Positions 1,232 to 64,000 of a DNA stretch of 64,000 nt are shown here, in pieces (the stretch's first letter is position 1; each line of letters opens with the position of its first letter). The notes under the pieces are model-generated. The model was not told where the DNA came from and ran no database searches. It saw only the letters and a list, made by a program, of their open reading frames with translations. The translations under genes were made by a program, and so were the position numbers. Source of the stretch: Mobula hypostoma (Eukaryota); the NCBI RefSeq assembly GCF_963921235.1, contig NC_086097.1:64048001-64112000 (forward strand), written 5' to 3'.

Positions 1232-2706
1232 ATACCGAATTCCTTCCCAACAGAGGAGATAAAAGATTTGAGCTATGGATAAAGAAAGGTCTTACAACCT
1301 ACCTCTCATTTATAGATAAAAGAGTATTACAAAGTTTCCAAATCCTGCAGGACAAACATGGCCTAGAACACAATGACTTTTTTAGGTACCTTCAAGTACG
1401 AAACTATGTTAACCAGAGTTGTAGATATACAGACCTATCAACAGTAGAATTAGAATTTTTCAAGATTCTGAATTCGGCTTGCAGTTCAATACCTAGTAAA
1501 TCAGTTTCTCGATTATATAATGCACTCTCCCATGCTAAAAATGTAAATACACTGTATATTAAAGAGAAGTGGGAGAAAGAAGCGGGGTTGGTACTTTCAG
1601 AGGAGGCTTGGGGGAAAATCTGCAGCTTTCAATGGTCCTCGACTAATTCTTTGACTTGGAGAGAACATTGTTGGAAATCATTATAAGATACTTCAAGACC
1701 CCATATCAGGAAAAATATAAAGATACAAACGTGACGTGTTGGAGAAGGTGCGGCTCCAAGGAGGCAAATCATTTTCATATTTTCTGGGATTGCCCTAAAT
1801 TAAGTCTATATTGGGAAGGTATTCATAGAACATTAGTTAAGGTACTTAGGTCCCAGATACCTCTGAACTTTGAGACGCTCTATTTGGGGCATGTATTATT
1901 TCTTGAACAGAAGGAAGATATAAAGTTGCTGCAGGCCCTCTTAGCGGCAAGTAAGAAATCAATCACTAGAAAGTGGCTAAATCCAATACCACCTACATTA
2001 GAAGATTGGCACGAAATTATCTTGGAAATATTTAAAATGGAAAAGTTGACTTACTCCCTGAGAATTCAAAAAGAAAAGTTTTATCAAATCTGGAATAAAT
2101 GGATTGAATATATAACCCCAATGCGAGCAGACTTTAGATGACTCTCCTAATGATTTATACTGCTCTTCTCATCAACACAGTAATATTACTAACGTAAGCA
2201 CCCCGAGTCTAAATGTCTTTTTTTTTTGTTTTCTTTTGGAAAATGGAGAATTAACACAAGTAAAGGGAAAGATTTGGGGAAGGGATAAAAAATGAAAAAA
2301 TTAAGTAAGTAAGTACATAGGGATTGGATAATTATGTCTGTGGGCAGGAGCAAGCATGAACAAATTAGGATATAAACACCTACAATGGTTGTTACATAGG
2401 CTTACATACAACATTTTGGACCAGTGAAATGGTCCAGAAGAGTTAAATGGAAACTATTATTACTATTTTTCTTAACAACTAATACCATTACTTAGCCTAA
2501 TAGATTAGAATTACCACAGTACATAATTATCTATTTGTGTCTAATTTCCTTTTATATCATCTCCATGTGTACTTAAGAATGTATAAATAATTATAGTTTT
2601 ATACATATTAAAAAATGGAAAAGGTTATATGTGTGAAAAAAGTACATGATATTTGTGAATTCCTTATCCAAATAAAAATAAAATTTAAAAAAATAATTTA
2701 AAAAAA
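1232..2706 (+). mobile_element. L1/Tx1-type LINE 3' end (ORF2 C-terminus with CCHC zinc knuckle, 3' UTR, A-rich tail), abutted or interrupted by the CR1 copy
   Basis: The frameshifted ORFs 1232-1686 and 1656-2141 contain FFRYLQVRNY and CWRRCGSKEANHFHIFWDCPKL...KW, typical of L1-clade ORF2 ends. AATAAA and a poly-A-like tail lie at about 2670-2706. Confidence 0.8.
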
Positions 2707-3239
2707 GGAAATACACCAACCAGTTTGTATCCTGCAACAAGGTTGAGATCAATTTTAGTAATATTAAAATTACTGGATAAATATTCAATCACAGCTCTGC
2801 TTTTTCATCACTCTATGACACCCATATTTCAACAATCTTTCGATATTCGTAGCTCCTACTTGAATAATGATTGTTGGGATGATAAAAGCAAGAGAGTTTA
2901 TGGTCTGGGTGGAAGAAGGCTAAGAAAATGTGTAAACCTTGTAAAAAAGATTTGAAGGACCAAAATTACGAAAACCTGTAATTTTGTTACAAGCCTGCTT
3001 TTTACAAGAAGTTTATTGTATAATACTGGCACTGTTAAAGTCAGCAGCATGTATATATATCTACTGCAGAATTCCTCATTAATTCAAACTCACCATGGTA
3101 TTGGAAAAAAATGTCTGCAAATATTTGTTTTCAAATTTATTAGTATCTTTATTGCATCTGGAATTCAAGAAAGGATAATTGCTTTATGGTGGGTGGGATA
3201 TTTAACTTGCTGAACAAATTCAGATCTTGTGGGTGAAAA

Positions 3240-3360
3240 GCAAAAAAAACTGTTGATGCTGGAAATCTAAAATCAAATTGGAAATGCTGAGAATATCCAG
3301 TAGGTCAGGCTCCATCTGTAGAAAGAGTAATAGAGTTCATATTTCAGGTTGAATATCCAT
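3240..3360 (-). repeat. Old degenerate copy of the Penelope-like terminal repeat family; a second copy lies at about 3597-3690
   Basis: GATGCTGGAAATCT...CATCTGT motif is shared with the copies at 14720, 40735 and 60449. Confidence 0.5.
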
Positions 3361-4021
3361 CATTGGTACTTTAGATTTTTGAAAAACTGGATTTGTTGTT
3401 ACAAATACAGCATTTTTGCTTAGGAAAAATAGAAATGCCCTTAATGTATAATTCGGATGTACTGTATCAGAAAGACTTACTTCTTTCTGGCTGGCAGGCA
3501 TAGAATTGTGTTGTGACAATGATGAATTTTAGTAGAAAGAGGGTGTATCCAAATCATCGTTCTTTCTCTTCCCTTAAACATTTGACTAGTTAGCAAAAGC
3601 AATATACTGCAGATACTGGAAATCTGAATTTGAAAGATAAAATGTTGGAAATATTCAGTAGTTCGTCTGTGGGGAGAAAAGGTTTATCAATCTAAGCCAC
3701 CAGCTTGGTTACACTCTTGTTTGTTGTTTATACTTTTTACTTCAATCAGGATGTAGAAACCTTTACCTGAAAAAGTGATGGAAGCTGTTACAAGAAAGCA
3801 GTTTGAGGAGGACTGGTGACAGATGTAATGATGGTGATTTTGCAGGTTTACACAATGAGGATTTGGGGTTTTGTGCAACTGCACTTTTAGTGGGCCATTG
3901 TGAATATTATAAACCAAAATGCTGCCTCTAGTGCTACATATATCTCTGATTCCATGAAATGGCTATTTTAAACCATTTGTATAAAATGTTTTTCCACTTG
4001 GACTGTTCTCTCCTTCTGTAG

Positions 4022-4200
4022 GTATGATTCTGATAGGTGTGGATGAAGAGCTTGGAGCTCAGGTGTATAAGTGTGACCCTGCTGGTTATTATTGCGGTTT
4101 CAAGGCCACTGCTGCAGGAGTGAAACAGACAGAAGCCACAAGCTTCTTGGAAAAGAAGATAAAGAAAAAACTTGACTGGACTTATAACCAAACTGTAGAG
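4022..4200 (+). CDS. PSMA6: Proteasome subunit alpha type-6, antepenultimate exon (exon 5 by vertebrate numbering)
   Basis: Encodes (C)[60 protein letters not shown] polypyrimidine tract and AG acceptor lie at 4020-4021 and a GT donor at 4201. Length is 179 bp. Confidence 0.97.
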
Positions 4201-4299
4201 GTAGGAAAGTGCAATATCTTACAGTAATGATTAACTTATTTACCTGGTCAACTTACTTCCAATGTTGATTTTCTGTTATAGAGTTATCCAATATAGAAA

Positions 4300-5420
4300 A
4301 CAGACCTATAGGCTCAGTTACCTAACTGCTGCATTTGACCCATATCCCTCACAATTTCTGATCCATGTACTTGTCCAAATATAAATTAAATGTTGTAATA
4401 GTATCCACATCTTCCAGTTCCTCCAGCAGCTCATTCCACCACCCTCTATATAAAAATTTTGCGCCTCAAGTCCCCTTAAAATCCCTTCCTTCACTCTTTA
4501 AACTTATCCGTTATAGTTTGGACTCACCTACACGGGGGGGGGGGGGCAGAAACAATGGCTACTCACCCTATCTATGCTCTTTACAATTTTATAAACATCT
4601 AGTTGGTCATCTTTCAACCTTGGCCACTCCAGGGAGGACATCTGTACTATCTTTGTAACTCAAACCCTTAGATCTGTTTGCATTCTGGTAAATCTTTTTA
4701 TACCCTTTCCAGTTTAATGACATCTTTTGTGTCACTTGGTGACCTGAACTGTGCATTATTCTTAATGTGCTCTTACCAATGTCTAGTTTAACTGTAACAT
4801 GAAGTCCCAACTCCTGAACTCAACCCACTGACTAATGAACCCAAGTGTGCCAGACTTCTGCTCTATCCTGTCTACCTGTGTCACCACCTTCAAGAAACTA
4901 TGTATATTCACCCCTTGGTCTTTCTGTTCTGTAGCACTCCCCAGGACCCTGCTATTTACTGTGCAAGTCCTGCCCTGGCTTGCTTTACCAAAATGCAACA
5001 CCCCACATGTATCTGAATTAAACTGCATCTCCCATTTCTCGGCCCACTGACCCAATCGATTAAGATCCCACTGTAATCCTAAATAATCTCCTTCACTATC
5101 CACTATACCACCAAATTTAGTTCCATCAGCATTCTCCACCAGATCTTTAAACGATGAACAGCAGTGAGCCCAACATCAATCCCACCTGGGACATTTTTGG
5201 GCACAGGGCTCCAGTTTGAGAAACAACTCTTGTACAGTCAAGCCAATTTGATTTTCCAGTTGGCTAACTTGTCCTGGATCCCATGTGCTCTGTCCTAGCC
5301 TACCTACCATATGATATCTTGTCAAAGAGATTACTAAAATCCATGTACAATGTTTACCGAGCTGCCGTCATCTATGTTCTTGGTAACATTGTCAAAAAAA
5401 ACTTAAGTTTGTGCAACACA
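4300..5420 (-). mobile_element. Degraded CR1 LINE fragment in a PSMA6 intron
   Basis: ORF 4783-5139 (ADGTKFGGIVDSE...LGQWAEKWEMQFN) is homologous to the CR1 RT at 201-1232. Confidence 0.85.
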
Positions 5421-13129: not shown

Positions 13130-13562
13130 GGCCAGTGCACAGGATTGGCAAAAGTTACAGTACTTGTAAACTCAGCCAGCTCTATCATGGGCACTAGCCT
13201 CCCAGCATTCAGACACCTTCAAAAGGTGATGCCTCAAGAAGGTGGCATTCATCACTGATGTCCCCTCATCACCCAGGCCATACCCCCCTTCTCATTGCTG
13301 CCATCAAGGAGGAGGTACAGGAGCCTGAAGACACATCCTCAATGTTTCAAGAATAGCTTCTTCCCTTCTTCCATCAGATTTCTGAATGGACAATGAACTC
13401 AGTAGTTTTCCTCTTTTTGCAGAACATTTAATTCAATGTTTTATATACTGTGTATATTTCTTATCGTAATGTATAGCTTTAATAATTATATATTGCAATG
13501 TACTACTGCCACAAAACAAGAAATTTCACAATATATGCCAGTGATATTAAACCTGATTCTGA
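13130..13562 (+). mobile_element. Rex1/Babar LINE 3' fragment
   Basis: Same CACCCAGG..ATG.CC..TTCTCATTGCTGCCATC...AGGTACAGGAGCCTGAAG and AAACCTGATTCTGA tail as the other copies. Confidence 0.8.
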
Positions 13563-13564
13563 AG

Positions 13565-14675
13565 AGCCCATTGTATTACAGAAAAGATAGTAGCATGGAT
13601 AGAAGATTGGTTGAATGGTAGGAGGCAAAGAGTGGGAATAAAGGAGTACTTTTATGGTTGGCTGCTGGTGACTAGTGGTGGTCTGCAGGGCTTGGTGCTG
13701 GGATCACTTCATGTTATATGTCAATGATTTGGATGATGGAATTGATAGTTTTTGTGGCCAAGTTTGTGGATGATACGAAGATAGGTGGAGGTGCAGGTAG
13801 TGTTGAGAAAGCAGGGAGTCTGCAGAAGGACTTATTCAGATTAGGAAAATGGACAAAGAAATGACAGATGCAATATTGTGTAGGGAAGTGTATGGTCAGG
13901 CACTTTGGTAGAAGGAATAAAGGCATATGCTATTTGTAAACAGGGTATAAATTCAGAAATCAGAGGTGAACAGGGATTTGGGAGTCTTCGTGCAAGTTTC
14001 CATAAAGATTAACTTGCATGTTGAGTGGATGGTGAAGAAGGCAAATGTAATGTTAGCACTCATTTTGAGAGGACTGGAATATAAGAACAAGGATGTGATG
14101 CTAAGCATTTTTAAGGCATTGGTCAGACCATACTTGGAGTATTATGAGCAGTTTTGGTACCCTTATCTAAGAAAAGATGTGCTAGTATTGGAGAGGGTCC
14201 AGAGGAGATTCACTAGAATGATTCCAGGAATGAATGTGTTAATGTATGAAGATAGTTTGATGGTTCTGGGTGTGTACTTGCTGGAGTTTAAAAGAATTGG
14301 GGGGGGGGGAATCTCATTGAAACCTATTGAATATTGAAAGGCCTAGATAGAGTAGATGTGGAGAGGATGTTTCCTATAGTGGGTTAGACTAGGGCCAGAG
14401 GGCACAACCTCAGAATAGAAGAACATCCCTTTGGAAGAGAGATAAGGAATAATTTCTTTAACCAGAGAGTAGTGAATCTATTGCTGGAGATAGCTGTGGA
14501 AGCCAAGTTATTGGGTATATTTAAAACAGAGGTTGATGGGCTCTCAATGAGCAAGGGTGCCAAAAGTTACAGGAGAATGGGGCTGAGAGGGATAACAAAT
14601 CAATCATGAAGTAATGGTGGAGCAAACTTGATAAATCAACTGGCCTAACTCTGCTCCTATGTCTTATGGTCTTAA
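13565..14675 (+). mobile_element. CR1 LINE 3' fragment
   Basis: ORF 13966-14337 has ALVRPYLEY...RRFTRMIPGM, and the element ends in the tail CTATGTCTTATGGTCTTA. Confidence 0.9.
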
Positions 14676-14717: not shown

Positions 14718-15209
14718 AAAGCAACACACATAAAAATTGCTGGTGAACGCAGCAGGCAAGGCAGCATCTATAGGAAAAGGTACAGTCGACGTTTGGGGCC
14801 GAGACCCTTCATCAGGACTAACTGAGAGAAGAGCTAGTAAGAGATTTGAAAGTGGGAGGGGGAGATCCAAAATGATAGGAGAAGACAGGAGGGGGAGGGA
14901 TTCAGCCAAGAGCTGGACAGGTGATTGGCAAAAGGGATATGAGAGGATCATGGGACGGGAGGCCTAGGGAGAAGGAAAGGGGGAGGGGGGAAGCCAGAGG
15001 ATGGGCAAGGAGTATAGTGAGAGGGACAAAAAGGAGAGAAAGGGAAAAAAATTAATAATAAATAACGGATGGGGTACGAAGGGGAAGTGGGACATTAACG
15101 GAAGTTAGAGAAGTCAGTGTTCATGCCAGCAGGTTGGAGGCTACCCAGACAGAATATAAGGTGTTGTTCCTCCAACCTGAGTGTGGCTTCATCTTGACAG
15201 TAGAGGAGG
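14718..15209 (-). mobile_element. Penelope-like element 3' end: GIY-YIG C-terminus, pyrimidine-rich UTR and terminal repeat with a hammerhead motif
   Basis: Minus strand 15206-15095 translates LYCQDEATLRLEEQHLIFCLGSLQPAGMNTDFSNFR*, matching the PLE GIY-YIG end motif (E..hI..L.tL.P.GhN). Confidence 0.8.
14784..14819 (-). ncRNA. Minimal hammerhead ribozyme motif with a G12-to-C core mutation (probably inactive)
   Basis: AGUC-CUGAUGA-A-GGGU CUCG GCCC-CAAAC-GUC^GACU. It matches the intact copy except for CAAA in place of GAAA (position 14795). Confidence 0.7.
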
Positions 15210-18529: not shown

Positions 18530-21210
18530 CAGGCGCCACAGTGGGGCGACGTTTTGTATGGGGCTTCTGTCAAGTGCTCCTTTTTGGAACTACAGTACTG
18601 CAGTTGTAATCTGCAACCACAGGCACTGCGGGAAGTAACATTGTTTCACGGCATTTCAAAGAACTGGCTAGATTCAAAGCCAGCAGATTCGGGTCTGTTG
18701 GCCATCCAGAGTGTGAGAGGAGCAGCTGGAAGCTCAGGAAATGTCTCCCTTGTTTCAGGAAACAAGGCCGCTGGGGAGAGCTTCAGGTAAAACTGAAGTG
18801 CGGGGCCCTAAGACCTGCCCCCGATCATCCTCCTGGCTAATGTACAGTGTCGAGAAAATAAAACTGAAGACCTCAGAGCAAGTCTGCTCTACCAAAGGGA
18901 TGTCAGGACTGTTGTTCACTCTATAGTCCACGTTACTCCAGATTAAACCCCCTGTGCTCAAAGGACAGGGAGAACTTGCTAGAAGATCGAAAGGATATCA
19001 ATGATTGATGGTGGCCACTGATATTAAACCTGGTTCTGATTTTGACTTTCAAGAGCTTCTTAACCACAACAGCACTCCTGAACCAGAGATTATGAATCAG
19101 AATCTCCAGAGGCCTGTGCGAGTAGACAAGGGGGAACCTTGCAGTATGAAAGAGGTTCGTGATAGTGCCTGGACACTGAAAAGCAATGAAGCCATGGGTC
19201 CTGACGCAATCCCAGCAGAGACCCTTAAGGAATGTGGACCAGCACTCCTGCACCTCAAGTATGCCTTCCTCCTAAAGGTCTGGGAAAAGGAAGAGCAGGG
19301 GGCTCCCTCAGAGCAGGGGGATTCTCTTAACAGTGACATATTCAAGAAGAGAGATAAGGCAAATTGAGGCAATTACAGGGGTATCTCCCTGCTGTCATCA
19401 CAGGCAATGTGCTTGCATGTATTCTTGTCCAGCAACTCTGAAGAAGTACTCCCTGAACACAGTGTGGTTTCTACCCATCTAGAGGTACCGCAGACATGAT
19501 CTTCACAGCACGCCAATTACAGGGAAAATGCCATGAACAAAGGCAACCCTTAGACTTGGCTTTCATAGATTTCACAAAGGCATTTGCCTCAGGAGACTGC
19601 CAAGTGCTCTGGCATATACTATCCTGGCAAGTACTTACAAATACAGAGACTACTGCATGATGGCATGTAGGCCTCAGTACTCAGTAATAGTGGCACTGAA
19701 TCTGAACCCTTCACTGTCAAGACAGGAGTCAAACAGGGCTGTATCACTGCACCTAGCCCATTTGCCATCTTTATTGCTATCATCTTTCACCTTGTAGGAT
19801 CTTGGGAATAAAACACGCAAGAATCGTTTTTGTGTTTAATAAAAGCCACAGTTCTTTACTTCCATTGGGAACAAAATAAAAGCAGCCGCTTTACACAGAT
19901 GTCATTATGTCAGGTACCATCTCTTAAAGTGAGCACAACAACTCAATGTCAGTGTTTGTGATTTGTGTAGAACAGTGTCTATTATGAACAATATGTGTTA
20001 TCTGTCTCCCATTATACTACCCTGCAACCTCACTGGCCAAGACCTACCACAGGGAATCCCTTTTGAGTATAGAATGGACAACAGGCTTTCAAACTTCAGC
20101 TGGGTCAAGGCCAAGAATAAGGCCAACTATCATGGAGTTTCAGTATGTGGACGACAACGCCATCACAGCACGCTCTGAAGAAGATCTACAATGCATCCTG
20201 AATGCCTTCTGTAAAGGCATATAGAGCCCTGGGTCTTGTTTTGAATATAAAAAAAGACACAAGTCCAAAATCAGCTACCACCCAACCAACCATTATCCGG
20301 CTCTCCATAAAAGTTGACAGTCATCCTTGAAAATGTAGACTACTTTCCCTGCCTTGGCAGCATTCTCTCCTCAAAAGCAGACATGGACTCCAAGATCAAC
20401 CATCGCCTAAGTAGCACTGGTGGAGCCTGTGCAAGATTAAGGAAAAATTAAGGAAGAGTGTTGTCCTTCCTACATTACTGTATAGAACTGAACAATGGAC
20501 CACCTGCAGTATCTGAAAGCCCTGGAACAATGACACCAAATAACATTACACCAAAGATTTTGAAGATCAGCTGGAAGGACAGACAAGCATACGGGAGGAG
20601 GACAACATGAACAGCATCACCACTATGATAAAGCCACACTAAATCCAATGGATAGGTCATGTCATTCAGATGCCTAACTCATGTCTCCCCAAGCAGACCC
20701 TTTACTTCCACTTAAAGGCAGGTCAGCGATCCCCTGGTGGGCAAAGAGAATGCTTCAAAGCTAACATTAAAATCAACCTGAAGAAATTCAACATTACACC
20801 TAAAAACTGCAGAGAGCAAGTGGACACAAAATAATCTGCAGATGCTGGGGTCAAAGCAACACTCACAACAAGCTGGAGGAACTCAGCAGGTTGGGCAGCA
20901 TCCGTGGAAAAGATCGGTCGACGTTTCGGGCCAGAACCCTGACAAAGGGTTCCAGCCCGAAACGTTGACCAATCTTTTCCACGGATGCTGCCCACCCTGC
21001 TGAGTTCCTCCAGCTTGTCGTGAGTGTTGCAGAGAACAAGTGGAGGCTGGGAAAGAAGAGAATGACCCAACCACTATCCACAGTCACACTTACTCTTGGC
21101 CACACTGCACCAGAATATGTGGATCCTGGATCCTGGATTGGCCTCGGCAGCCACCTGAGGACCCACCAACAGACAAACCCTTAGGAGAGCATCATACTCA
21201 ACTTGGTAAC
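18530..21210 (+). mobile_element. Decayed RTE-clade LINE carrying younger insertions
   Basis: AMGPDAIPAETLK, NYRGISLL, FIDFTKAF, GVKQGC and QYVDD remnants, plus a C-terminal C2H2-like PHCTRICGS...HLRTH motif typical of RTE ORFs. Confidence 0.75.
20825..21030. repeat. Head-to-head inverted pair of Penelope-like terminal repeats (85-bp arms, 5-nt spacer) with a roughly 17-bp TSD
   Basis: Arms at 20856-20940 and 20946-21030 are near-perfect reverse complements. The flanking direct repeat TGCAGAGA(G/A)CAAGTGGA lies at 20808-20824 and 21028-21044. Confidence 0.85.
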
Positions 21211-32324: not shown

Positions 32325-35310
32325 TTCAAAGGTACAACTTAATGTCAGAGAAATGTAGACAATATACATCCTGAAATGCTTTTCCTTCGCAAACATCCAC
32401 AAAAAGAGAGAAGTGCCCCAAAGAATGAACAACAGTTAAACGTGAAAACCCCAAGTTCCCCCCACCCAGCTACCCGCCCCCGCACATAAGTGGCAGCAAG
32501 CAGTGATCTCACCTCCCCCCCAGCAGAGAAAAGCACACCCGCTACCAAGCACAAGCATGACTTAGGTGATAGCAAAGACACAGATCTTGCAGTTATCCCA
32601 AAGACTATCGCAATTCATCCAGCATTCGACAAACCCCAGGTTCTCTCTCTCCCTAATAAGGGAGAAGGAGGTGTCCCCCATTTTCACAGCGAGCAAGAGA
32701 CATAAGAACAACCCACTGGTTTACAATATTAAAAAGTCCATTTTGTCACTTTTTACGATCTCTGTGACTGAAGATCGCAAAGATCTCGGGTCTTCGGACC
32801 TACAGCGAAAGATTTTCTGGCCTCCCTGATGACACACGAGTCTCCTGCCATGACACTGATCCTTGATCTGCCTGTCTTCAGAGCCCCGAGACCTTAGGCT
32901 TCCAAATACCATAAAACCATAAGACCATAAGACAGAGGAGCAGAAGTAGGCCATTCGGCCCATCGAGTCTGCTCCACCATTTTATCATGAGCTGATCTAT
33001 TTTATCCTATTTAGTCCCACTGCCCCGCCTTCTCATCATAACCTTTGATGCCCTGGCTACTCAGATACCTATCAATCTCTGCCTTAAATACACCCAATGA
33101 CTTGGCCTCCACTGCTGCCCGTGGCAACAAATGCCATAGATTCACCACCCTCTGACTAAAAAAATGTTTTCGCATTTCTGTTCTGAAAGGGCGCCCTTCA
33201 ATCCTGAAGTCATGCCCTCTCGTACTAGACTCCCCCATCATGGGAAACAACTTTGCCACATCCACTCTGTCCATGCCTTTTAACATTCGAAATGTTTCTA
33301 TGAGGTCTCCCCTCATTCTTCTAAACTCCAAGGAATACAGTCCAAGAGCGGACAAACGTTCCTCATATGTTAACCCTCTCATTCCCGGAATCATTCTAGT
33401 GAATCTTCTCTGTACCTTCTCCAACGTCAGCATCCTTTCTTAAATAAGGAGACCAAAACTGCCCACAGTACTCCAAGTGAGGTCTCACCAGCGCCTTATA
33501 GAGCCTCAACATCACATCCCTGCTCCTATACTCTATTCTTCCAGAAATGAATGCCAACATTGCATTCGCCTTCTTCACTACCGACTCAACCTGGAGGTTA
33601 ACTTTAAGGGAATCCTGTACGAGGACTCCCAAGTCCCGTTGCATCTCAGAACTTTGAATTCTTTCCCCATTTAAAAAATAGTCTGCCCGTTTATTTTTTC
33701 TGCCAAAGTGCATAACCATACACTTTCCAACATTGTACTTCATTTGCCACTTCTCTGCCCATTCTTCCAATCTATCCAAGTCTCTCTGCAGACTCTCCGT
33801 TTCCTCAGCACTACTGGCCCCTCCACCTACCTTGGTATTATCAGCAAACTTAGCCACAAAGCCATCTATTCCATAATCCAAATTGTTGATGTACAATGTA
33901 AAAAGAAGTGGCCCCAACACGGACCCCTGTGGAACACCACTGGTAACTGGCAGCCAACCAGAATAGGATCCCTTTATTCCCACTCTCTGATTCCTGCCAG
34001 TCAGCCAACGCTCTATCCACGTATGTAACTTTCCTGTAATTCCATGGGCTCTTATCTTGTTAAGCAGCCTCATGTGTGGCACCTTGTCAAAGGCCTTCTG
34101 AAAATCCAAATATAGAACATCCACTGCATCTCCCTTGTCTAGCCTACTGGTAATTTCCTCAAAAAATAGTAATAGGTTTGTCAGGCAGGATTTTCCTTTA
34201 AGGAATCCATGCTGAGTTCTGCCTATCTTGTCATATGCATCCAGGTACTCTGTAACCTCATCCTTGACAATCGACTCCAACAACTTCCCAACCACCGATA
34301 TCAAGCTAACAGGTCTATAATTTCCTTTTTGCTTCCTTGCCCCCTTCTTAAATAGCGGAGTGACATTTGCAATCTTCCAGTCTTCCGGAACCATGCCAGA
34401 ATCTATCGACTTTTGAAAGATCATCGCTAATGCCTCCACAATCTCCACAGCTACTTCCTTCAGAACACGAGGGTGCATTCCATCTGGTCCAGAAGATTTA
34501 TCGACCTTTAGCCTATTCAGCTTCCTGAGTACTTTCTCTGTCGTAATTGTGACTGTGCACACTTCTCTTCCCTGCCACCCTTGAGTGTCCGGTATCCTGC
34601 TGTCTTCCTCAGTGAAGACTGATGCAAAATACTTGTTCAGTTCCTCTGCCTTCTCCTCATCTCCCATTACAATTTCTCCAGTATCATTTTCTATTGGTCC
34701 TATATCTACTCTCACCTGTCTTTTACTCTTTATATACTTGAAAAGGCTTTTAGTATCCTCTTTGATATTATTTGCTAGTTTCCTTTCATAGTTAATCTTT
34801 TCTCTCTTAATGACCTTCTTGGTTTCCTTTTGTAAGGTTTTAAAAACTTCCCAATCCTCTGTCTTCCCACTAATTTTTGCTTCCTTGTATGCCCTCTCCT
34901 TTGCTTTAACTTTGGCTTTGACTTCTCTTGTCAGCCACGGTTGCATCCTTTTTCCACTTGAAAATTTCTTCTTTTTTGGAATATACCTGTCTTGCACATT
35001 CCTCATTTCTCGCATAAACTCCAGCCACTGCTGCTCTGCCGTCTTTCCCGTCAGTGTCTCTTTCCAGTCAACTTTGGTCAGTTCCTCTCTCATGTCACTG
35101 CCGGACTCTCAGGCTGAACCCTTGGCGTGCCGAACAACGGCCAGTCCTGAAACCCTGAGAACAGGTCCTATTCCCGCAAAGAACCGAAGTCTGTGTGTAA
35201 CTCCAGGTGAGGGTCTTCAAAGGAACCCTGAAAGGGAAAAATAAAGATATTAAAGATGGTAATAGAGCTGTTTCCGAAGGTGCAAGCAAAGGACTCTCCG
35301 TTTAGTGCCA
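32325..35310 (-). mobile_element. Non-autonomous element with a Rex1-like tail, split by the young CR1 (host parts 32325-32907 and 35099-35310)
   Basis: The tail ...GACATTAAGTTGTACCTTTGAA resembles the Rex1 3' end at about 40490-40520. CpG-containing unique sequence lies on both sides of the CR1. Confidence 0.45.
32908..35098 (-). mobile_element. Young 5'-truncated CR1 LINE with a nearly intact RT
   Basis: A 565-aa ORF (35093-33396) and a 140-aa ORF (33433-33011) are separated by one 2-bp deletion. The catalytic FADD reads FADN. The tail is (CTTATGGT)n. Confidence 0.95.
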
Positions 35311-39099: not shown

Positions 39100-41060
39100 A
39101 TCTTTTACCTCAGCGCTCTTTTCTGGCAATAAGCTGATAGCCATGCATAACCTATCATCCAAAAAACTACCAGCCCTTGTCTTGAATATACTCATCAACT
39201 GAGCCTCCACGTCTTTCTTTAATAAAGGATTCCAAAGATTCCCCATTCTGAATAGCTGACATTTCAGTGGATTACCTCTGCTCTTCCAACTCGACACTGT
39301 AACCATCCACCCTCCATCCCCTCTCTCTACACCCCACCTCCAACACTCACATATTCCTCTAAACTCGGGAAAACACAAACCCTTCATCACGTCAATCAGG
39401 CTGATGAGCTTTCAGAGCCCTAAAGCATTTTCTCAGTCACAAGTAGACCAGACTTGTAAACGATATTCCATATGTGATCTCTCCAGGGCCCCTTTTCACT
39501 TCCGCAATCCGTCCAAACCCTTGTACTCAATACCTTTACCATCATACCATTTTCCTTTCTAATGACTTGCATATTAACCTTCACTGATTCCTGTACAAGG
39601 ACATCCAGGTCCATCTGAACACCAACAATTTTCAAACACGTCACTTAGAAGACACTCGGCTTTTGTTTTTTTTCTACCAAAGTGATTGACTTTACATTTT
39701 TCCACATTATATTCCATCTGATACTGTATGTTCCTGCCCATTCCCTTAACCAATTTCTCCCTGAAATCTTTCTGAATACACCCCATAACCTGCAGTATGC
39801 CCCAGTTGTGTCATGAGCAAAGTTGGGTACATTGCACTCACTGTCTTCACCCATATCAATGGGTGCCTCTACCTAGAAGTTTGTGAACAGTCAGCATGTC
39901 GACTAAAACTCTGACAAACTTCTATCAGTGTGTGGTGGAGAGTATATTGACTGCTTGCATCATGGCCTGGTATGAAAACACCAATGCCTTTGGATGGAAA
40001 ATCCTACAAAAGGAAGTGGATACAGCCTAGTCCACCATGGGTAAAGCCCTCCCCATCACTGAGCACACCTACATGGAGCGCTGTTGCAGGAAAGCAGCAT
40101 CCGTCATCAAGGACCCTCACCGTCCAGGCCCTGCTCACTTCTTGCTGCTGCCATTAGGAAAAAGGTACAGGATCCTCAGGTCCCACACCACCAGGTTCAG
40201 GAGCAGTTAATAACCCTCCACTATCAAGCTATATAACCAAAGAGGATAACTTCACTCAACTTTACTCACTCCAACACAGAACGATTCCCTAAACCTATGG
40301 ACTCACTTTCAAGGATCCTTCATCTAATGTTGTCAATTGATTGATTGATTTATCTATTTATTTATTTGCTTTCTTTCTTTCTTGTTCATCTTGTTGGATG
40401 TGTTCTTTAATTGATTCTATTGTTTCTTGTATTTACTATGAATGCCCACAAGAGAATGAATCTCAGTTGTATATGGTGACATACATGTACTTTGACAATA
40501 AACTTGCTTTGAACTTTGAATACGTTTGGATTGACAATTCTCTAGGATTGCATTAGTCTCAATTTCTAAACCTGAAAATTATTTATTCATCCAAAGTCAT
40601 TCTTTTTGCTTGTTAACCAATCCACAGTGCAATCTTTTATGCCCGAAACAGTGTACTCAAATTGTGTTTATTAATCTTTTGTGTGATGCTCAAAGATCTT
40701 CTGAAAATCGAAATACACCACATCATCTATTCGCAAACAACAGGAATTCTGCAGATGCTGGAAATTCAAGCAACACACATCAAAGTTGCTGGTGAACGCA
40801 GCAGGCCAAGCAGCATCTATAGGAAGAGGCGCAGTCAACGTTTCAGGCCGAGACCCTGTTAGTTAGTCTCAAAAAGATTTTAACAGATTTTTCAAACTTA
40901 ATTTCCCTGTCATAGATTCATGCTGGCCCTGTCCAATCCTCGTTTTATTTTCCAAATGCTCTGTTAACATCCTTTTATTAATAGCTTTCAAAAATTTCCC
41001 CATGGTTTTAATCATACTAATGTCTATACTTAGTTCCTGGTTTTGTCTCCCGCCTTGTAA
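39100..41060 (-). mobile_element. Old CR1 LINE with nested Rex1 (about 39890-40520, +) and Penelope repeat (40735-40857)
   Basis: CR1-like QMEYNVEKCKVNHFG and NFAHDT. The insert has Rex1 VESILT.CI.AWY and a tail ending CTTTGAACTTTGAA. Confidence 0.75.
40735..40857 (-). repeat. Penelope-like terminal repeat truncated inside the hammerhead (lacks CUGANGA)
   Basis: Nearly identical to 60449-60570. It stops at GAGACCCT, the start of stem II. Confidence 0.85.
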
Positions 41061-52790: not shown

Positions 52791-55700
52791 ATCTGGCTGT
52801 ATTTCTGCTCTGGGCATACAGGCAGAGACTGAGGACCACAGCACCAATGATTAGGTGCATGAGGGAGGCAGTGGAATCGGTGGACTGGACAATGTTCAGG
52901 GACTCATCTTCCAATCTGACTGAATTATACCACAGTCATCATTGGCTTCATTGAGACCTGTGTGGATGATTCTGTACCTTCAAGAACACACAAAACATAC
53001 CTTCTTCTTCTTAAACCCATCACCCCAACTAGGCCATAGGTCACAACAGCAGCTTCCCAGATTCCTCTGTCTTGGACCAGTCTTTCAAGTTTAGTCCATC
53101 TTCAAAGATCCTTCCTTTTCCAGGCTGAGGTCTTTGGACTTTCCGTTGGTGTTTCTGTAGCTCTGGGTTTTCACAGGGTGGGGTTGATATCCCCAAGCCC
53201 AACACTCCAATTTTCGCAGCCAGGCTTGGGGCCAGAGTTACATACCGAACATACCCAAACCGAGAACTATGGATGAATCAGGAGATTCACAGTCTACTGA
53301 GGGCTAGATCTGCAGCAATCAAGAGTGATGATGCAGAACTATACAACCTGCAGAAGGCTTTTTAAAGAGCAAATAAACAATTCTGATTGAAGTTGGAGAT
53401 GAAATCAAATGCATGTTGGCTCTGGCAGGGATTGCAGGCTATTACTTCCTACCAGGCGAAACCTAGCATCAAGAAAGGTTGAGATGCTTCTTTCCCAGAT
53501 GAACTCAATGCCTTTTATGCACATAAAACTACATACATCTGTGCAAATCCCTGCAGTATCTGGTGAACTAGTGATCTTTGTCTTGGAGGCTGATGTCAGA
53601 ACTTCTTTCAAGAAGGTGAACCCTCACAAAGTGTCAGTCCCTGATGGTGTACCTGGTTGACACAGGAAACCTGTGCCAACCACCCGGCGGGAGTGTTTAA
53701 GAACATCTTCAATCTCTCATTGCTGCAGTCGGCTGTCCTTCAAAAGGGCAACAATCATATCACTGCCCAAGAAGAGCAGGCTGAGCTGCTCAGTGACTAT
53801 TGCCCAGATACATTCACATCTACTGTGATGAAGTACTTTGAGAAGTTGGTCATAAGACCATAAGACAAAGGAACAGAAGTTGGCCATTCGGCCCATTGAG
53901 TCTGCTCCGCCATTTTATCATGTGCTGATCCGTTCTCCCATTTAGTCCCACTCCCCCACCTTCTCACCATAACCTTTGATACCCTGGCTACTCAGATACC
54001 TATCAATCTCTGCCTTAAATACACCCAATGACTTGGCCTCCACTGCTGCCCCGGCAACAAATTCCATGGATTCACCACCCTCTGACTAAAAAAATTTCTT
54101 CGCATTTCTGTTCTGAATGGGCGCCCTTCAATCCTTAAGTCATGCCCTCTCGTACTAGACTCCCCCATCATGGGAAACAACTTTGCCACATCCACTCTGT
54201 CCATGCCTTTTAACATTCGAAATGTTTCTATGAGGTCTCCCCTCATTCTTCTAAACTCCAAGGAATACAGCCCAAGAGCAGACAAACGTTCCTCATAAGT
54301 TAGCCCTCTCATTCCCGGAATCATTCTAGTGAATCTTCTCTGTACCCTCTGCAACGTCAGCACATCCTTTCTTAAATAAGGAGACCAAAACTGCCACAGT
54401 ACTCCAAGTGAGGTCTCACCAGCGCCTTATAGAGCTGCAACATCACATCCCTGCTCCTATACTCTATTCCTCTAGAAATGAATGCCAACATTGCATTCGC
54501 CTTCTTCACTACTGACTCAACCTGGAGGTTAACCTTAAGGGTATCCTGTACGAGGACTCCCAAGTCCCATTGCATCTCAGAACTTTGAATTCTTTCCCCA
54601 TTTAAACAATAGTCTGCCCGTTTATTCATGACTAGAATCAACTCATGTCTCTGCAAAGAACACGGCCTCGCTGCAATTTTCCTATCACCACAATAGGTCA
54701 ACAGTAGATACAGTCTCATTGGCTCTCCACTTGGCCTTGGATCGCCGGACAATTGCAATACCTACATCACACTGCTGTTTATTGATTTCAGATCAGCATT
54801 CAACACAAATATGCCCTCAGTACTAATCAACAAGCTCCAAAACCTGGTCTTTATACCTCCCTCTGTAACTGGATTCTTGACATCCTCATTGGGAGACCAT
54901 AGTTAGTGCAGATGGGAAATAACATCTCTACCACTCTGACACTCAACACTGGCTCACCTCAAGGATGGGGGCATCACTGCTCTACTCTCTCTATACCTAC
55001 GACTGTGTGGTTAGCACAGTTCAAATGCCAACTATAAGTTTGCTAATGCTACAACTATTGCTGCCTAAATTTCTGCAGGTGACAAGAAGATATACAAGAG
55101 TGAGATAGATCAGCTGGTTGTGTGGTGTTGCAACAACAATCCTGCACTCAACATCAATAAGACCAAGGAGTTGATTGTGGACTTCAGGAAGGGGAACTCA
55201 AAGGAACACACAGCAGTTCTCATTGAGGGATCAGAAGTGGAAAGGATGAGCAGTTTCAAGTTCCTGGATGTCAGCATCTCCAAGGATCAATCCTGGACCC
55301 AACATATTGGTGCAATTACAAAGAAGCACGATAATGACTATATTTTATTAGGAGTTTGAGGAGTTTTGGTATGTCACCAAAGACTCTTGCAAATTTCTAC
55401 TGATGTCTGTGGAGCGCATTCTGACTGGTTGAATCACCATCTGGAATGGAGGGGCCACTGCCCAGGATCAGAAAAAGCTGCAGAAAGTTTTAAATTCAGC
55501 TAGCTCCATCATAGGCCTTCCCTGCATCAAAGACGTCTTCAAAAGGAAGTGCCCCAAAAGGACTCCTACCATCCAGGGCATGCCCTCTTCCCCTTGCTAC
55601 TATTAAGGAGGAAATACAGGAGCCTGAAGACACATTCTCAACATTTTAGGAACAGCTTCTTCCCCTCTGCTGTGAGGTTTCTGAACAGGTAATGAACCAA
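52790..55700 (+). mobile_element. Long decayed Rex1/Babar LINE with nested insertions
   Basis: KVNPHKVSVPDGVPG, FTSTVMKYFEKLV, FIDFRSAFNT and LNINKTKELIVDFRK motifs. Confidence 0.85.
53851..54626 (-). mobile_element. Young CR1 3' fragment inserted in Rex1 (same subfamily as 32908-35098)
   Basis: Near-identical to 32920-33695 with the same CTTATGGT tail. The host rejoins at GGTCAT|GACTAGA with a short TCAT duplication. Confidence 0.92.
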
Positions 55701-55705
55701 TGTAC

Positions 55706-58700
55706 TGTCAGGAAATGGAGGGAATGTTTGTCCCAAAAGCAGAGCAGTGGATACAATTCGGCAATGTACAATAACTTTAATATAAACGGCGAAAATAACA
55801 AGCCATGAGGGGGTCACAAAACAAAAGAGAGCAAATACTAAACACCACAGGAAACAAGGTGACAGAAGGCTAGGACCAACTGATTGAGGCTGGCTGGTTT
55901 GATGAGTGAACCAGGACTATGGGTGAGAGATGGGTTTAAATAGGCTGCAGGTGATGAGTTGTAAATGAGTGGAACGCGACTTCTGTTAGCTGGGTGGAGA
56001 CTGGGAGGTGTCTGCCTGTACAGACCTGACAGGACCTCCTACCCCCCCTCCCACCCCCACTTGCCTACAGCTGGCACCCGATCCAGATGGGTCTGCTGGA
56101 ACTGCTTGATGAGTGATGGATCCAAGATGAAACTGGACAGGCGATCAGGGACTGTACATCTCGTACACAACAATGTGAATCCATTGACAGGTGAACCACG
56201 TACACTGGACCTCCTTCCACCATTCTAGGCTCGGGTGAGTTGGTGGGCCATGGACAATGAACTTGAGGCAGGACATGGGACGTAGGTGTGATCCTGAGGG
56301 ACGGTGGGGGCGCAGCTGGAGACAGGAAGTGATTGGATTGATGCGACGGGTGATCTTGAAGGGATCAATGAACTTAGGCGAGCGCTTGTGGGAGTCGGTG
56401 CAGGGGCAGATCTCGGACAGCCAGACATGATTCTCAGGCCAGAGTAGGCACAGTTGGCACCGACGATGGCCCTCTTCCAAGCATTCAAGCAGTGGGGTAT
56501 CAAGGCTCTCGCAGGTGGGATCTTTACCACTGGCACCTCCACAAGGAGCAATGGGGGTTGGTAGCCATGAAGTATATTAAAGAGTCTGACACCCAAGGCA
56601 GGGAAGCAGTGTAGATTGTGGGACAGTTCAGCCCAGAACAGATCTGTCTTCCACGTGGAAGGGGTAGAGGCGGTGAAGCGTTGTAGTAACCTCTCCAATT
56701 GCTGAGTGGCTCTTTGTGACCAAGTGTTGTTCTGCAGATGATAGCCAGAGGACAAATTCACTGAGGTGTGGACGAGGGAGCAGAGGCTCACCAAAGTGGA
56801 GGCCCCAGTCCGATGCAATATCCTGAGGGAAGCAGTGGAGATGAACTACATATTGGAGAACCAGGGTCCACCATCTCAGATGCTGACAGAAGCTTGGGGA
56901 GGGCAATGAAGTGGGCCACCTTGGAGAACCAGTCCACCACCGCCCTGATCACCACGGTCACACCAGAAGATGGCAGGGATACAGAGGGTCACTGGTTGGA
57001 GAAATTGGACCGGACACATTGAGGGCAGGCGTACATCTGCGATCACGGTGAGCCACTAGAACCAGCGTCACAGAAAATCCAGTCTGTCGTGTGCCCGTAT
57101 GGCCAGGGATGGGTGAGGAGTGGGCCGACTGAGGTGCCTCAAAGTGCATGGCTTCCGGTACATACATGTGGTTGTCAGGCGTGTCAGCCAGAGTAGGGTC
57201 GCGTTGTAGGGCCTGGTGGATCTGGTTCTCCAGATAATCGGGGTGAGGATCTGGGAGGAGGGAATGGTAGGCTGAGGATGAATCTCCATTTCAGCTGGGT
57301 TTATCTGTCGTGACAGGGCATCTGCCTTAGTGTTCTTGGAGCCAGGTCATTTGGAGAAGGTGAGGTTGAATCAGTCGAAGAAGACCCGGTGAGCATGACG
57401 AGGGTTGAGTTGGCAGGTTTGTCGTATGAATACGAGGTTCTGGTTGCCAGTTCAGATCAGGAAGGGCTCGGTGTTTCCAATCAGCCAATGTCGCCATTCC
57501 TGCAAGGCCCATTTCATTGTGGGTAGCTCCTGGTCTCTACAGTGCTGTGTACAGTTGAACATGCCTGAGAAGGCAGCACAAGGGTGTGTCTGCCCATCCA
57601 GTCCTTGCCAGGAGAGGAATGCCCCAGTGCCCTATTCAGATGTGCCCACCTCTACCACAGGAGGCCTGGAGGGGTTTGGATGGCAGAGAATGGGAGTTGT
57701 GGTGAAGCGTCTCTTGAGCTGCTGGAAAGCTTGGTCTGCGGCAGCAGACCAGGTTATCTGTCAGATAGACGACTTGGTAGGGAAGGTGAAAGGAGCAGAG
57801 AATGGGCTGTAATTTCTGAAGAACTTGGAGAAGCACGAGGAGTGCTGGAACTGTTTGAGGGAGTGCAGTTGGGGCCACTCAGTGACAGCTCACACTTTCT
57901 CTGGTCCATGGTTTTGCCTTGGGGTGAAAGGACGTAACCCAGGAAGGAAATGACTGGGGCGTGGAACTGGCATTTCTCTAATTTGCAGTACTGTTGGTTT
58001 TTGAGGAGATGTTGAAGGACTGACGTGGTCTTGGGGGTTCCTGGAGAAGATAAGGATGTCGTCGAGGTAGATGAACACAAACCGGTATAATATGTCTCGA
58101 AGGATTTTGTGAATGAAAGCTTGTAAAACAGCCGGACAGCTGGAACATCCGAAAGGCATCAGCAAGTATTGGTAGTGGCCAGTGGGTGTTATAAATGCTC
58201 TCTTCCACTCAACACCCTGATGGATGCACATTAGATTGTATGCACTCCGCTGATCCAGTCTGGCGAAGATCTGGGCCCCATGGTTTATTTTGACTGTGCT
58301 ATCCATCAGTGGGAGAGGGCTGCTGTTCTTAATGGTGATTTTGTTGAGTCCACATAGCTGAGGCCGTGGCAGAGACCCCCATTTTTCTTGTTGACAAAGA
58401 AGAATCCTGCACTGGCTTGGAACTGGGATGGTCGAATGAAGCGGTGATATCATGCTTCATTCATGGCTTGGTCTCTGGAGTGAAGAGCAAGAACAGACAG
58501 CCTCGGGGAGGGGTGGTGCCCGGGAGGAGGCTGATTGCGCAGTCGTGTGGTCTATGAAGTGGCAGGGCACTGGCTTCCCTCTTACTGAAGGCAACGGCTA
58601 AGTTGTGGTGTTCCTGCAGGAGCTTTGTGAGGCCAAGGGTTTCCTCCATCTTCACGGATTTACGGGGTGAAGTGAACTAAGGTTACAGGCAGGTGGGTCG

Positions 58701-60255
58701 CGAACTCAACAGTGAAGCAGATGGCCAGGCAGAGTGAGGGTGGTAACTGGAGAGCCAGGATGAGAGGAGTGTTGGATGAGTCAATCAGAAGGAATGGGAT
58801 GGACTTGCGGTGCTCTGTGATGCTCATGTGCGCAGGCCGTGTGCACGCTCTGACCACCCAGACCCCAAGGATCTGTCAAAGGCTGTGATGCAGAAGGAGT
58901 GAGACATAGGCTTGGTAGGGAGTACAAGCTGCACACAGGAAGTTGCTTGCTGTGCTGGAGTCCATCAGAGCCTCCTGTGCGCGTGAGCCATTGGGGTGTG
59001 GAGGAGGACAGGCTGTGGTTCTGGAGCAAGGACCGGGGGAGCTTACCAGGTTGAAGGCCCCTCAACTCTACCCAGTGGTGCCATTTCCCAGATGCAGTGG
59101 GTACTTGATGTGTGAGCAATCGGCTGATGCACAGTAGGTTCACATGCTGATTGTCCACTGATGCTCGCGTTCTTGGGGAGTTAGGGGAGCTCTCCCCAAA
59201 CGCATGCGTTCTGGAGGCATTGCCGATGAGAGTCCTGCAGCCAGGAATGGTTTGATTCTGGCTGATGATCTGGAAGGTTGTTCCATAAGGTGCTTGTCAG
59301 TATACAGGGCCAGACTGTTCAGGCTTTTTATGTCACTGGGCATCTCCTGAGCAGACAGCTTGGCTTCCAGGCTCCCCGAGAGGCCACAATGGTAAAAGGC
59401 CAGTGGCCCTGCCCTATTGCAGTTGCACTCTGCTGTGTGGGTACTGAGTTCCACATTGCAATGTAGCACCATGTGTCAGCCTTGACACAGGAGCAGTATC
59501 TGATCTGCTGCCTCCCATCCACTTCCCAGATGGTAAAAAACCCAGCGCATCTCAGCGGCGAATTCCTCATATTTATTGTAAATGGTAGTTTTATTGTCCC
59601 TGATAGCAGCGGCCCAGGTCAGTCAGGAGAGAGAGAGGGAGGGGGAGGGAGAGAGAAGGGGAGAGGGAGGGAGGGAGAGGGAGAGAGGGAGGGAGGGAGG
59701 GAGGGAGAGAGGGGGAGATATATCTATATATGAAGGCAGACTTAGCTCGGTCCGTAGAATACAGAGTTGGCTGGAGCTTGAAGTGCAAGATGTACTGCAA
59801 TATGAATTGCAGTTTCGGGTTGGGGAATCTGGCAAACTGTTTGGGCACCGAGGAAGGAGGCAGACTGGCTTGGGGTTGCTGTAATGAGACGGAGAGTGGG
59901 TTGAGGGTGGCGAGCAGGTGGTCAGTGCTTTCCTGCTGCTTCTGGATTGTGTGCTCCCGTCAATGGACGACTTCCCTCAGGTGAGCAAACTCTACTGGGT
60001 CAATCGATGGTCCATTTATCCTGTCAGGAAAGGTTTGGCCCAAAAGTAGAGCAGTGGAAACAACTGAGCAAAGAACAATAACTTTTAATAATAGTCTGTG
60101 AAAAAAACAAGCCTCAAGGGGCCACAAAACAAGAAAGAGCAGATGTGAAACACCACAGTCAACAAGGTTACTGAAGGCTGGGAACAACTGGATGAGGCCG
60201 GCTAGTTCAATGGGTGAACAAGGACTGTGGGTGAGAGCTGGGTTTAAATAGGCAA
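55706..60255 (-). mobile_element. Ty3/Gypsy chromovirus (Sushi-like) LTR retrotransposon, decayed
   Basis: The 3' LTR spans 55706-56031 (TGTCA...TGACA) next to a PPT, and a homologous 5' LTR starts at 60022. RT has FIYLDDILIFS and [11 protein letters not shown]. Integrase has HPGHTG and GPF-like remnants, with a chromodomain-like tail (...SSFILDPSLI). There are many frameshifts. Confidence 0.9.
59626..59731. repeat. (GA/GGGA)-rich microsatellite followed by (TA)n, inside the Gypsy gag region
   Basis: Seen directly in the sequence. Confidence 0.9.
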
Positions 60256-60448
60256 TGCATTGTGCATTAATATGATCCACAGAATATTAACAGAATGCAA
60301 AACAAGCTGACCACTATATTCTGGTACATGTGACAACAGTAGACCAATTCCATTTTCTATTTTTATGTCAATATTAATATGCCTAATTTGTGGGCCACAA
60401 TTAATCCAGACAAGAATGGACAACTGTTGCAACTCATTGAATCCTTCA

Positions 60449-60580
60449 AACAACAGGAATTCTGCAGATGCTGGAAATTCAAGCAACATACATCAAAGTT
60501 GCTGGTGAACGCAGCAGGCCAAGCAGCATCTATAGGAAGAGGCGCAGTCGACGTTTCAGGCCGAGACCCTTCGTCAGGAC
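60449..60580 (-). mobile_element. 132-bp Penelope-derived terminal-repeat insertion with a 12-bp TSD
   Basis: TTGAATCCTTCA at 60437-60448 and 60581-60592 flanks a sequence homologous to the PLE terminal repeat at 14718-14820. Confidence 0.9.
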
Positions 60581-60581
60581 T
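60546..60581 (-). ncRNA. Minimal type I hammerhead ribozyme with an intact core
   Basis: AGUC-CUGACGA-AGG GUCUCGG CCU-GAAAC-GUC^GACU. Both conserved core boxes, stem I (AGUC/GACU), stem II, a palindromic ACGU stem III and a GUC cleavage triplet are present. Confidence 0.8.
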
Positions 60582-60759
60582 TGAATCCTTCACATTGCTG
60601 ATCCATGATTAACCTCATTTATAACATTCCTCTGTCTCTCTGGGCTAATTTCACCTCACCCATCAGAGAATTCTTAGCTAGATGCAAAGTGCTGGAGATT
60701 ATACTGGAGTTATGAAATTAAAACGAGAACCAGTCTTCAAAAATAAAGAGCTGTTCACA

Positions 60760-61345
60760 ATTTAACTTCCATTGAGTTTAGGAGTAGGAACATTTTGTTG
60801 CAATTATGGAAGCCATTGGCGAACCTGCACTGGAAGTATTGTGTACAGTTCTGGTCGCTCTATTATAGGAAAGATGGTGTCAGGCTGGAGAGGCTACAGA
60901 GTTTATGAAGGTGCCACACTGGAGTAGAGGGCCTGAGTAACACAGAGAGGCTGGCCACACTGGATCTTTATTCCCTGGAGCACAAGAGAATGAGGGATGA
61001 CCTCATAAGTATTTTCAAAGTCATGAGGGGCAGGGATAGGGTTGGCATCTTTTCCCCAGGATTGAAGAGTCCAAGACTTGAGGACACTGATACAAGAGGG
61101 GAGGGATTTAAAAGAGACCTGAGAGGTCACTTCTTTACACTCGAGCATCTGGATGAGCTGTCAGAGGAGTGGCTGAGGCAGATATCATTGCAACATTTTA
61201 GAGGCAGTTTGATCGGTACCTGGAGTGGAGGGCTTGGGGGGCTATGGGCTAAATGTGGGCAGCAGGGAGAATGATGTGATCAGCATGGGCCAGTTGGCCC
61301 AAAGCACTTGTTTCCATCCTGACTTACTCTATGTCTCTATGACTT
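60760..61345 (+). mobile_element. Old CR1 3' fragment; another lies at about 62040-62350
   Basis: RMRDDLISIFKVMRG.DRV...FKRDLRGHFFT; tail CTCTATGTCTCTATG. Confidence 0.8.
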
Positions 61346-63765: not shown

Positions 63766-63932
63766 AATATTACTGGGTACAACAGGACACTGCCCTTCAA
63801 GAGGCAAAAGTGTCTGTGACAACCTTGTTAGACTCCAATTCCACTCCATGTGGTTGGGTGCTTTGCTCTTAATTATATCAGAAATGACTAAGAAAAACGT
63901 TGAATTAAAAGGAAGCCCAGTGAAAAACAAGC

Positions 63933-64000
63933 CACACACGTCAAAGTTGTTGGTGAACGCAGCAGGCCAGGCAGCATCTCTAGGAAGAGGTGCAGCTGAC
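63933..64000 (-). repeat. Penelope-like terminal repeat running off the window end
   Basis: AAAGTTG.TGGTGAACGCAGCAGGCCA.GCAGCATCT.TAGGAAGAGG is shared with 60490-60545. Confidence 0.85.

Follow-up and report, generated by a model that had tools for sequence, protein, structure and literature searches.

A minimal hammerhead ribozyme motif on short end-pieces of a Neptune-type Penelope-like element in Mobula hypostoma

Minimal hammerhead ribozymes (min-HHRs) occur in metazoan Penelope-like elements (PLEs), including Xena, Poseidon and Neptune of fish. The arrangement with a hammerhead in both pseudo-LTRs was published in 2014 (PMC4209133), and the class is also in print in PMC6765202, PMC7229834 and PMC6155905. 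Its traits include an unpaired base before stem II and a G-C first pair; in published tests such motifs were inactive as monomers and weakly active as dimers (PMC4209133). What hammerheads do in PLEs has been called unclear (PMC8557442). The Anolis element PAc is primed internally at two sites, with both strands cut and extended; its insertion product is shortened by 5' truncation of the RNA, and the main substrate is unprocessed RNA (PMC11167929). According to the same study, cleavage is unnecessary for insertion in vitro, and cleavage by the Anolis hammerhead needed its protein. PLE copies with an endonuclease (EN+) 'often' or 'optionally' carry a tail at one end, which has been credited to self-priming on antisense RNA or to endonuclease resolution (PMC8557442; PMC3846280).

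The window (the whole 64,000-nucleotide stretch analysed) carries a motif of this kind at 60.5 kb. It has the same core boxes and short stem I as the min-HHRs of PMC4209133, and likewise the unpaired base before stem II, the G-C first pair, the palindromic loopless stem III and the presence in both flanking repeats. Here too, the copies are mostly single and on truncated elements, with some close pairs on opposite strands, and they are very uniform, as in D. virilis. Stem II has four pairs, compared with seven to eight in Schistosoma motifs. The 35-base ribozyme has 41,774 exact matches in the genome, against about 9,000 copies in Xenopus and about 4,000 in coelacanth (PMC4209133); with 126,247 motifs in axolotl (PMC7229834; bioRxiv 10.64898/2026.07.22.740005), this is not a record. 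A hotspot of 5' ends at the ribozyme is seen here, and is not reported for min-HHRs in the accessible part of PMC4209133.

Poseidon PAc of Anolis carolinensis (PMC11167929) has the same two internal 3' ends, which define an optional tail, with the hammerhead just upstream; neither PAc nor the ray element gives a sign of cleaved RNA as template. PAc belongs to the Penelope/Poseidon clade and has its start codon inside the ribozyme. The ray element, in contrast, has a zinc-finger linker, and its first in-frame ATG is found beyond the tail, 110 bases past the anchor (5'-end positions are counted upstream of this anchor, with the cut at position 28 and stem I opening at position 60, window 60581). 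The 5' ends of genomic copies are not mapped in the accessible text of the PAc study. Other EN+ PLE insertions share partial tandems, an inverted 5'-truncated copy and a 30-40-bp tail on one arm (PMC3846280; PMC8557442).

Non-LTR retrozymes (PMC7229834; bioRxiv 10.64898/2026.07.22.740005) are likewise short, non-coding and hammerhead-bearing, are linked to PLE repeats and have long target duplications. They consist of 170-400-base units repeated head to tail, bear canonical type I hammerheads and have circular RNAs; the 60.5-kb insert, unlike these, is a single end-piece of a kind that varies in length, lying between target duplications, and ends vary among 102 sampled copies.

The motif is real and of a known kind, and the family is a new or unnamed member of that kind. 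A search of mostly open literature, outside Repbase and Dfam, found no account of the Neptune-type family or of a 5'-end hotspot at a PLE ribozyme. The ribozyme itself is of a published type and changes little. What the genomic copies add is a sharp 5' boundary at the ribozyme, of which that literature gave no account, and a one-end tail habit that becomes a strict rule. The family is young and has tens of thousands of near-identical copies; the ends of its insertions serve as a trace of the RNA template, and their statistics make the template question testable.

The hammerhead motif and its insertion

The features of the 60.5-kb locus are as follows.

60437-60448, unstranded: target-site duplication at the element's 3' end, read from the sequence; its last two bases (60447-60448) also match the element
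60449-60581, minus strand: short insertion, very probably the pseudo-LTR end and tail of a Neptune-type PLE; matches both repeats of L127 and sequence upstream of the ORFs in L101 and L117
60449-60484, minus strand: optional 'tail' between two putative reverse transcription start sites (60449 marks the long end, about 60485 the short one)
60546-60549, minus strand: stem I 3' arm (GACU), from sequence and the hammerhead consensus (PMC4209133)
60550-60557, minus strand: GAAA box (60557-60554), loopless palindromic stem III ACGU (60554-60551) and C17 at 60550 (GUC triplet)
60558-60570, minus strand: extra unpaired A at 60570, then stem II GGGU/GCCU with loop CUCG, by folding
60571-60577, minus strand: CUGACGA catalytic box, from sequence
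60578-60581, minus strand: stem I 5' arm (AGUC), from sequence; its AG is the main 5'-end hotspot genome-wide and terminates a pyrimidine tract in the full element
60581-60592, unstranded: target-site duplication at the element's 5' end; its first base is shared with stem I

A sequence-only reading of the window had proposed a minimal hammerhead here. On the minus strand at 60581-60546, both core boxes, the stems and the cut position can indeed be read; sequence and the hammerhead consensus place the predicted cut between 60550 and 60549. CUGANGA and GAAA boxes are present with a NUH triplet, as are a short stem I, an unpaired base before stem II, G10.1-C11.1 and a loopless palindromic 15.1-16.1 region. 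Two pairings had been offered for stem II, AGG/CCU and GGGU/GCCU after an extra A; the latter is the one mapped. Rfam at gathering scores gave no match within the 64-kb window. The ribozyme stretch folds like shuffled sequences (z 0.01), so it is the core motif and where it lies that speak for a ribozyme, rather than folding energy.

The best predicted monomer fold buries the core in a GACG/CGUC helix (-10.7 kcal/mol, compared with -6.7 kcal/mol for the fold with stems I and II). For the stem III/cut-site 10-mer, the best duplex pairs six bases across the cut (-10.3 kcal/mol); the productive ACGU pairing alone gives -1.7 kcal/mol. In silico, these predictions would count against dimer pairing and cleavage in trans. 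A second palindrome, GUCGAC at window 60547-60552, spans the cut and overlaps the stem III palindrome; it is a predicted competitor of the productive dimer.

The 12-bp target-site duplication (60437-60448 and 60581-60592) is real. The T at 60581 is both a base of the duplication and the first base of the ribozyme, and the insert is 132-135 bp long depending on how bases shared between duplication and element are assigned. Family pieces were sought in the window with blastn (word 7, E<=0.01), which found six: 60437-60592, 40734-40857, 14719-14819, 63922-63995 and two arms at 20835-21007. An earlier count had given five clear copies and several older relatives; further relatives of that sort were not found at this threshold. 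Only the 60.5-kb copy, one of the six, has an intact ribozyme core. The other pieces are the following.

14719-14900, minus strand: longer copy with GAAA>CAAA, which continues into the pyrimidine-rich upstream part; mapped as far as 14900
20823-21030, unstranded: head-to-head pair of a sister subfamily with both cores broken; outer limits approximate
40734-40857, minus strand: copy 98% identical (blastn), broken off inside the ribozyme and without the CUGA box
63922-64000, minus strand: diverged copy that the end of the window truncates; shows no core up to that point

The window also contains LINE-like repeat fragments (1-1231, 13562-14674, 32918-34147, 53851-54626 and 60740-61270), which we take to be of CR1/L2 type; 32918-33695 and 53851-54626 are 94.6% alike. 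At 56100-59300 on the minus strand there are GC-rich, broken frames that presumably derive from a Ty3/Gypsy-type pol, with RT and integrase-like motifs by eye. Taken as a whole, the repeats of the window resemble those of a cartilaginous fish, probably a ray.

The full element and its family

The insert had been described as a self-standing mobile unit of 132 bp. Neither part of this description is supported: there is no fixed length (53 of the 102 sampled copies continue further upstream, past position 63), and the insert is instead very probably an end-piece of a full PLE, namely the pseudo-LTR end and tail of a Neptune-type element. Full elements were sought through an N-terminal motif of the protein; 30 of its 1,329 matches were fetched and seven were extended. 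Going upstream, the long copies pass a pyrimidine-rich untranslated part and reach an ORF that carries YIDD, the linker C-x4-C-x2-C and GIY-YIG. In L127 (G000:C1:16881500-16888000, minus 2035-5163), a 1,043-codon open frame is flanked on either side by the ribozyme, with a period of 3,513 bp. This frame is out of phase for a short stretch around YIDD; DKG and YIDD are seen in L117. L127 also bears an inverted arm. The insert sequence matches both repeats of L127, and in L101 and L117 it lies upstream of the ORFs. Partial tandems are found in L125-L128; in L125, L126 and L127, two same-strand ribozyme copies lie 3,508-3,516 bp apart around the ORF and represent both pseudo-LTRs. Downstream of the 5' repeat, the last bases of the unit continue into the ORF leader. 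The partial tandem in L125 (G000:C1:65843500-65853400) has two near-complete ORFs and an inverted piece in front, which is the layout of active Penelope copies.

The single ORF encodes RT plus GIY-YIG as its C-terminal domain (CCHH type), as in EN+ PLEs. Pfam matches in the L127 frame are RVT_1 (E 0.0047) and GIY-YIG (E 0.0011), both below the curated cut-offs; among solved structures there was no match to the element protein. A C-x4-C-x2-C zinc-finger linker lies between RT and EN in the protein (P0001). A CX2-5CxxC linker in this place is common to Neptune and Nematis (PMC8557442). The element is provisionally assigned to the Neptune type by its linker and, for Neptune over Nematis, by vertebrate distribution (bioRxiv 10.64898/2026.07.22.740005).

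Genome counts and full-length elements both bear out the proposal that a min-HHR of the PLE kind sits on a very high-copy retroelement family. For the 28-mer adjoining the ribozyme, the 3.48-Gb genome contains 68,081 exact matches, split evenly between the strands; the reversed 28-mer used as a control has no exact match genome-wide. Exact counts drop with distance from the end, from 68,081 (end 28-mer) to 6,132 (RT motif) and 1,329 (N-terminal motif); the patterns differ in length, so these copy ratios are rough. Sister subfamilies add 76,280 exact 19-mer matches. They form at least four clusters with different upstream sequence and the same pyrimidine tract, YAG and ribozyme.

Copies were sampled as the first 100 listed places of the 28-mer, all in the first 3.8 Mb of C1, together with two window copies (102 in total). 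Core, stem I and stem III are intact in 49 of the 67 sampled copies that span the ribozyme. A core no better conserved than its flanks had been named as evidence against a working ribozyme. Across five subfamily clusters with differing upstream flanks, core and stems are retained better than the immediate flanks, and the stems are nearly invariant in the five cluster majority lines; by eye, no pair shows compensatory change. The segment downstream of the ribozyme is equally well kept, partly since the search pattern fixed it. In one sister cluster, core position 6 is C instead of A (17 of 40 readable sister copies), a variant which occurs in natural hammerheads. The copies with C at this position (L238, L266, L275, L280, L293, L299 and others, on C1 of G000) share it by descent. 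The ribozyme probably rides along; any cleavage is likely to depend on protein or dimer formation and would not be required for making the 60.5-kb copy.

Where genomic copies begin and end

The 3' ends of the 102 copies are bimodal, at about 37 and about 74 bases from the anchor, and the 60.5-kb insert belongs to the long-end class. Head-to-head arms are present in 51 of the 102; of the 51 non-inverted copies, 16 carry duplications of 12-19 bp. Every head-to-head pair has one long and one short tail (77/77, and 27/27 in a set not selected by 5' end), where the accessible parts of PMC3846280 and PMC8557442 have 'often' or 'optionally'. The rule suggests one start site per strand, used by a protein dimer. 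By analogy, it matches the two internal start sites of PAc and its two-strand cutting and extension.

The 5' ends cluster at the ribozyme. Seventeen of the 102 copies end at positions 59-63, or 3.4 per base, compared with 0.5 at 32-55 and 0.35 at 64-100; the 60.5-kb copy is one of the seventeen, nine of which are non-inverted (paired arms were counted singly). Genome-wide, exact patterns give 1,532 starts at position 60 and 105 at position 66. These patterns require two non-matching purines in front; the controls are imperfect: pattern lengths are unequal, with six more letters for position 66, and inversion joints are favoured by purine flanks. The observation that the insertion starts at the ribozyme therefore extends to the family, far above chance. 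Truncation of the 5' end is general in the 102-copy sample and in PLEs (PMC8557442), and the start at the ribozyme could be an accident of it. This is extremely unlikely, and for the family it is refuted by the 15-fold excess over the neighbouring position and by the 17 of 62 ends within 100 bases that sit in five bases (p 6e-9 against a uniform distribution). For the 60.5-kb copy taken alone, a chance start has a probability of about one in ten.

Starts at positions 58-64 number 4,811 (seven positions), against 1,862 at 66-76 (eleven positions). A hand tally of 100 matches listed for 58-64 gives 4, 27, 34, 11, 5, 12 and 7 and forms two peaks, each covering an A and the base that follows it; the matches listed for 66-76 were tallied by hand as 15, 5, 9, 5, 6, 4, 13, 10, 15, 14 and 4. 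The peaks thus lie at 59-60, at 63-64 and weakly at 72-75, all on an A behind pyrimidines and the base after it; both main peaks are on AG steps behind a pyrimidine tract. Of 73 distinct hotspot starts, 50 abut an antisense arm, 22 have plain flank (12 of these show a duplication of at least 10 bp) and one follows a sense piece, which is an ORF piece away from the donor-like site. Thirty stem I loci read by eye comprise 11 plain, 18 inverted and one sense start. No shared exon precedes the hotspot among the 73 starts, and in nine plain copies no distant duplication convincingly marks a captured host exon. Copies starting at the ribozyme may number about 10^4.

At the predicted cut there are 250 starts, compared with 111 two bases away, a 2.25-fold raw excess; both patterns miss a subfamily that has T at one position and accounts for 32 of the 67 copies sampled. 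Thirty cut-start loci were read by eye: 24 are inversion joints, many sharing GA, GAC or GACT, five are internal changes and one is a plain junction. By this estimate, stem I has some tens of times more plain starts than the cut, and the raw excess leaves room for a small cleaved fraction. A cleavage scar was also considered, as 3 of the 102 copies start at the cut, yet it was rejected, since the genome-wide loci are mostly inversion joints with short shared letters. Thousands of copies begin at the first letters of the ribozyme and not at the predicted cut, so genomic ends favour uncut RNA as the likely template. The scarcity of cut-site starts would fit the use of unprocessed RNA as the main substrate of PAc in vitro (PMC11167929).

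These ends also bear on the idea that the insert is a short ribozyme element in its own right, resembling a SINE or retrozyme, with RNAs that pair, cut one another in trans and are inserted anew. Very high copy number with intact cores, the perhaps 10^4 copies that start at the ribozyme and the existence of Penelope-derived retrozymes in vertebrates (bioRxiv 10.64898/2026.07.22.740005) are in keeping with such an element. It is nevertheless very unlikely. The unit starts 32 bases before the cut and is therefore not a copy of cleaved RNA, and the starts at the cut itself are mostly inversion joints; length is not fixed, diagnostic positions are common to short and long copies, and there is no head-to-tail array of the unit at the 60.5-kb locus.

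Candidate origins of the 60.5-kb copy

The best overall explanation is that the insert is an end-piece of the full element, which is very probable, and that it was likely made from internally primed cDNA that ran off the 5' end of uncut RNA. The element's own protein would nick the target DNA, and staggered nicks about 11-12 bp apart would yield the target duplication. Reverse transcription would be primed at the outer of two internal sites, and the cDNA would run off the uncut RNA at the first base of the ribozyme. Priming just behind the 5' repeat would give a short run-off cDNA, comparable to retroviral strong-stop DNA. The hotspot would then reflect transcription starts at pyrimidine-A steps, namely the stem I A, the A four bases upstream and a weaker A 15 bases upstream.

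A transcription start is the leading candidate for the cause of the stop, at somewhat less than even odds. Three observations weaken the run-off reading. An excess of G before the hotspot A, a possible trace of cap copying, is absent (8 of the first 30 matches listed, hand count). Where one arm of a pair lies at the hotspot, the partner passes it in 10 of 41 cases, which is not clearly below the 19 of 54 for all arms (Fisher p 0.37); provided that the two arms copy a single molecule, such partners argue against one RNA ending there. The end rate also stays raised upstream of the hotspot, at 0.0066 per base at risk over positions 64-100, with no immediate drop.

The same end-piece could arise if RT stalled at splicing factors on an unspliced template, both at the AGs and at the branch A; the AG of stem I would then serve as a 3' splice site, preceded by a branch-like motif and a pyrimidine tract. 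In five clusters with otherwise different upstream sequence, TCCTG directly follows a pyrimidine tract and YAG, and both main peaks are on AG. The weak rise at 72-75 is close to the branch-like A: of 81 ends at 67-75, 52 fall there, where 4/9 are expected (p 3e-4; a hand tally in which some pairs are counted twice). One donor-like site is present 682 bases upstream of the anchor. Published elements offer parallels: the 3' end of an intron in D. virilis maps to helix I (PMC4209133), and introns are retained in PLE copies (PMC2377424). In D. virilis Penelope, transcription starts 46 bases before the intron (PMC2377424). However, no spliced junction occurs among the 73 starts, the same three A positions also fit initiator-like pyrimidine-A steps, and some positions are over-counted through microhomology with the antisense arm. 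A protein roadblock, moreover, is expected to halt the enzyme ahead of the site, which speaks against a splice-site stop. This cause is on balance unlikely, though a serious candidate.

A stop on RNA structure would also leave the same end-piece, with RT halted at a long inactive hairpin based on the stem I A and cDNA ends released or trimmed there. The minimum-energy fold closes exactly at 60581/60546, as this requires, but it is no better than the shuffles mentioned above (z 0.01), and further assumptions are required for the rise at 72-75 and for the second peak, four bases upstream. The mirror fold in the cDNA is weak (-5 kcal/mol, 6% of the ensemble); protection of the cDNA by a hairpin was rejected on this ground. 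A hairpin stop is accordingly improbable, and causes other than transcription start, splice-site roadblock and hairpin are given the same low weight.

The run-off reading can be carried further. Some ten thousand short copies may be strong-stop-like cDNAs that map, at single-base resolution, the RNA start (or splicing factors) at the first base of the hammerhead. Along with the lack of a scar at the cut and the 77/77 tail rule, they would point to a dimeric Penelope-type enzyme that uses two sites in vivo to prime both strands on RNA neither cut nor spliced. This is put forward tentatively, as a possibility that falls short of an even chance. In the sister family, 14 of 95 copies have 5' ends at 58-62, but homology between subfamilies also stops there, so that just the nine ends with non-pyrimidine flanks by eye are a hint of the same hotspot.
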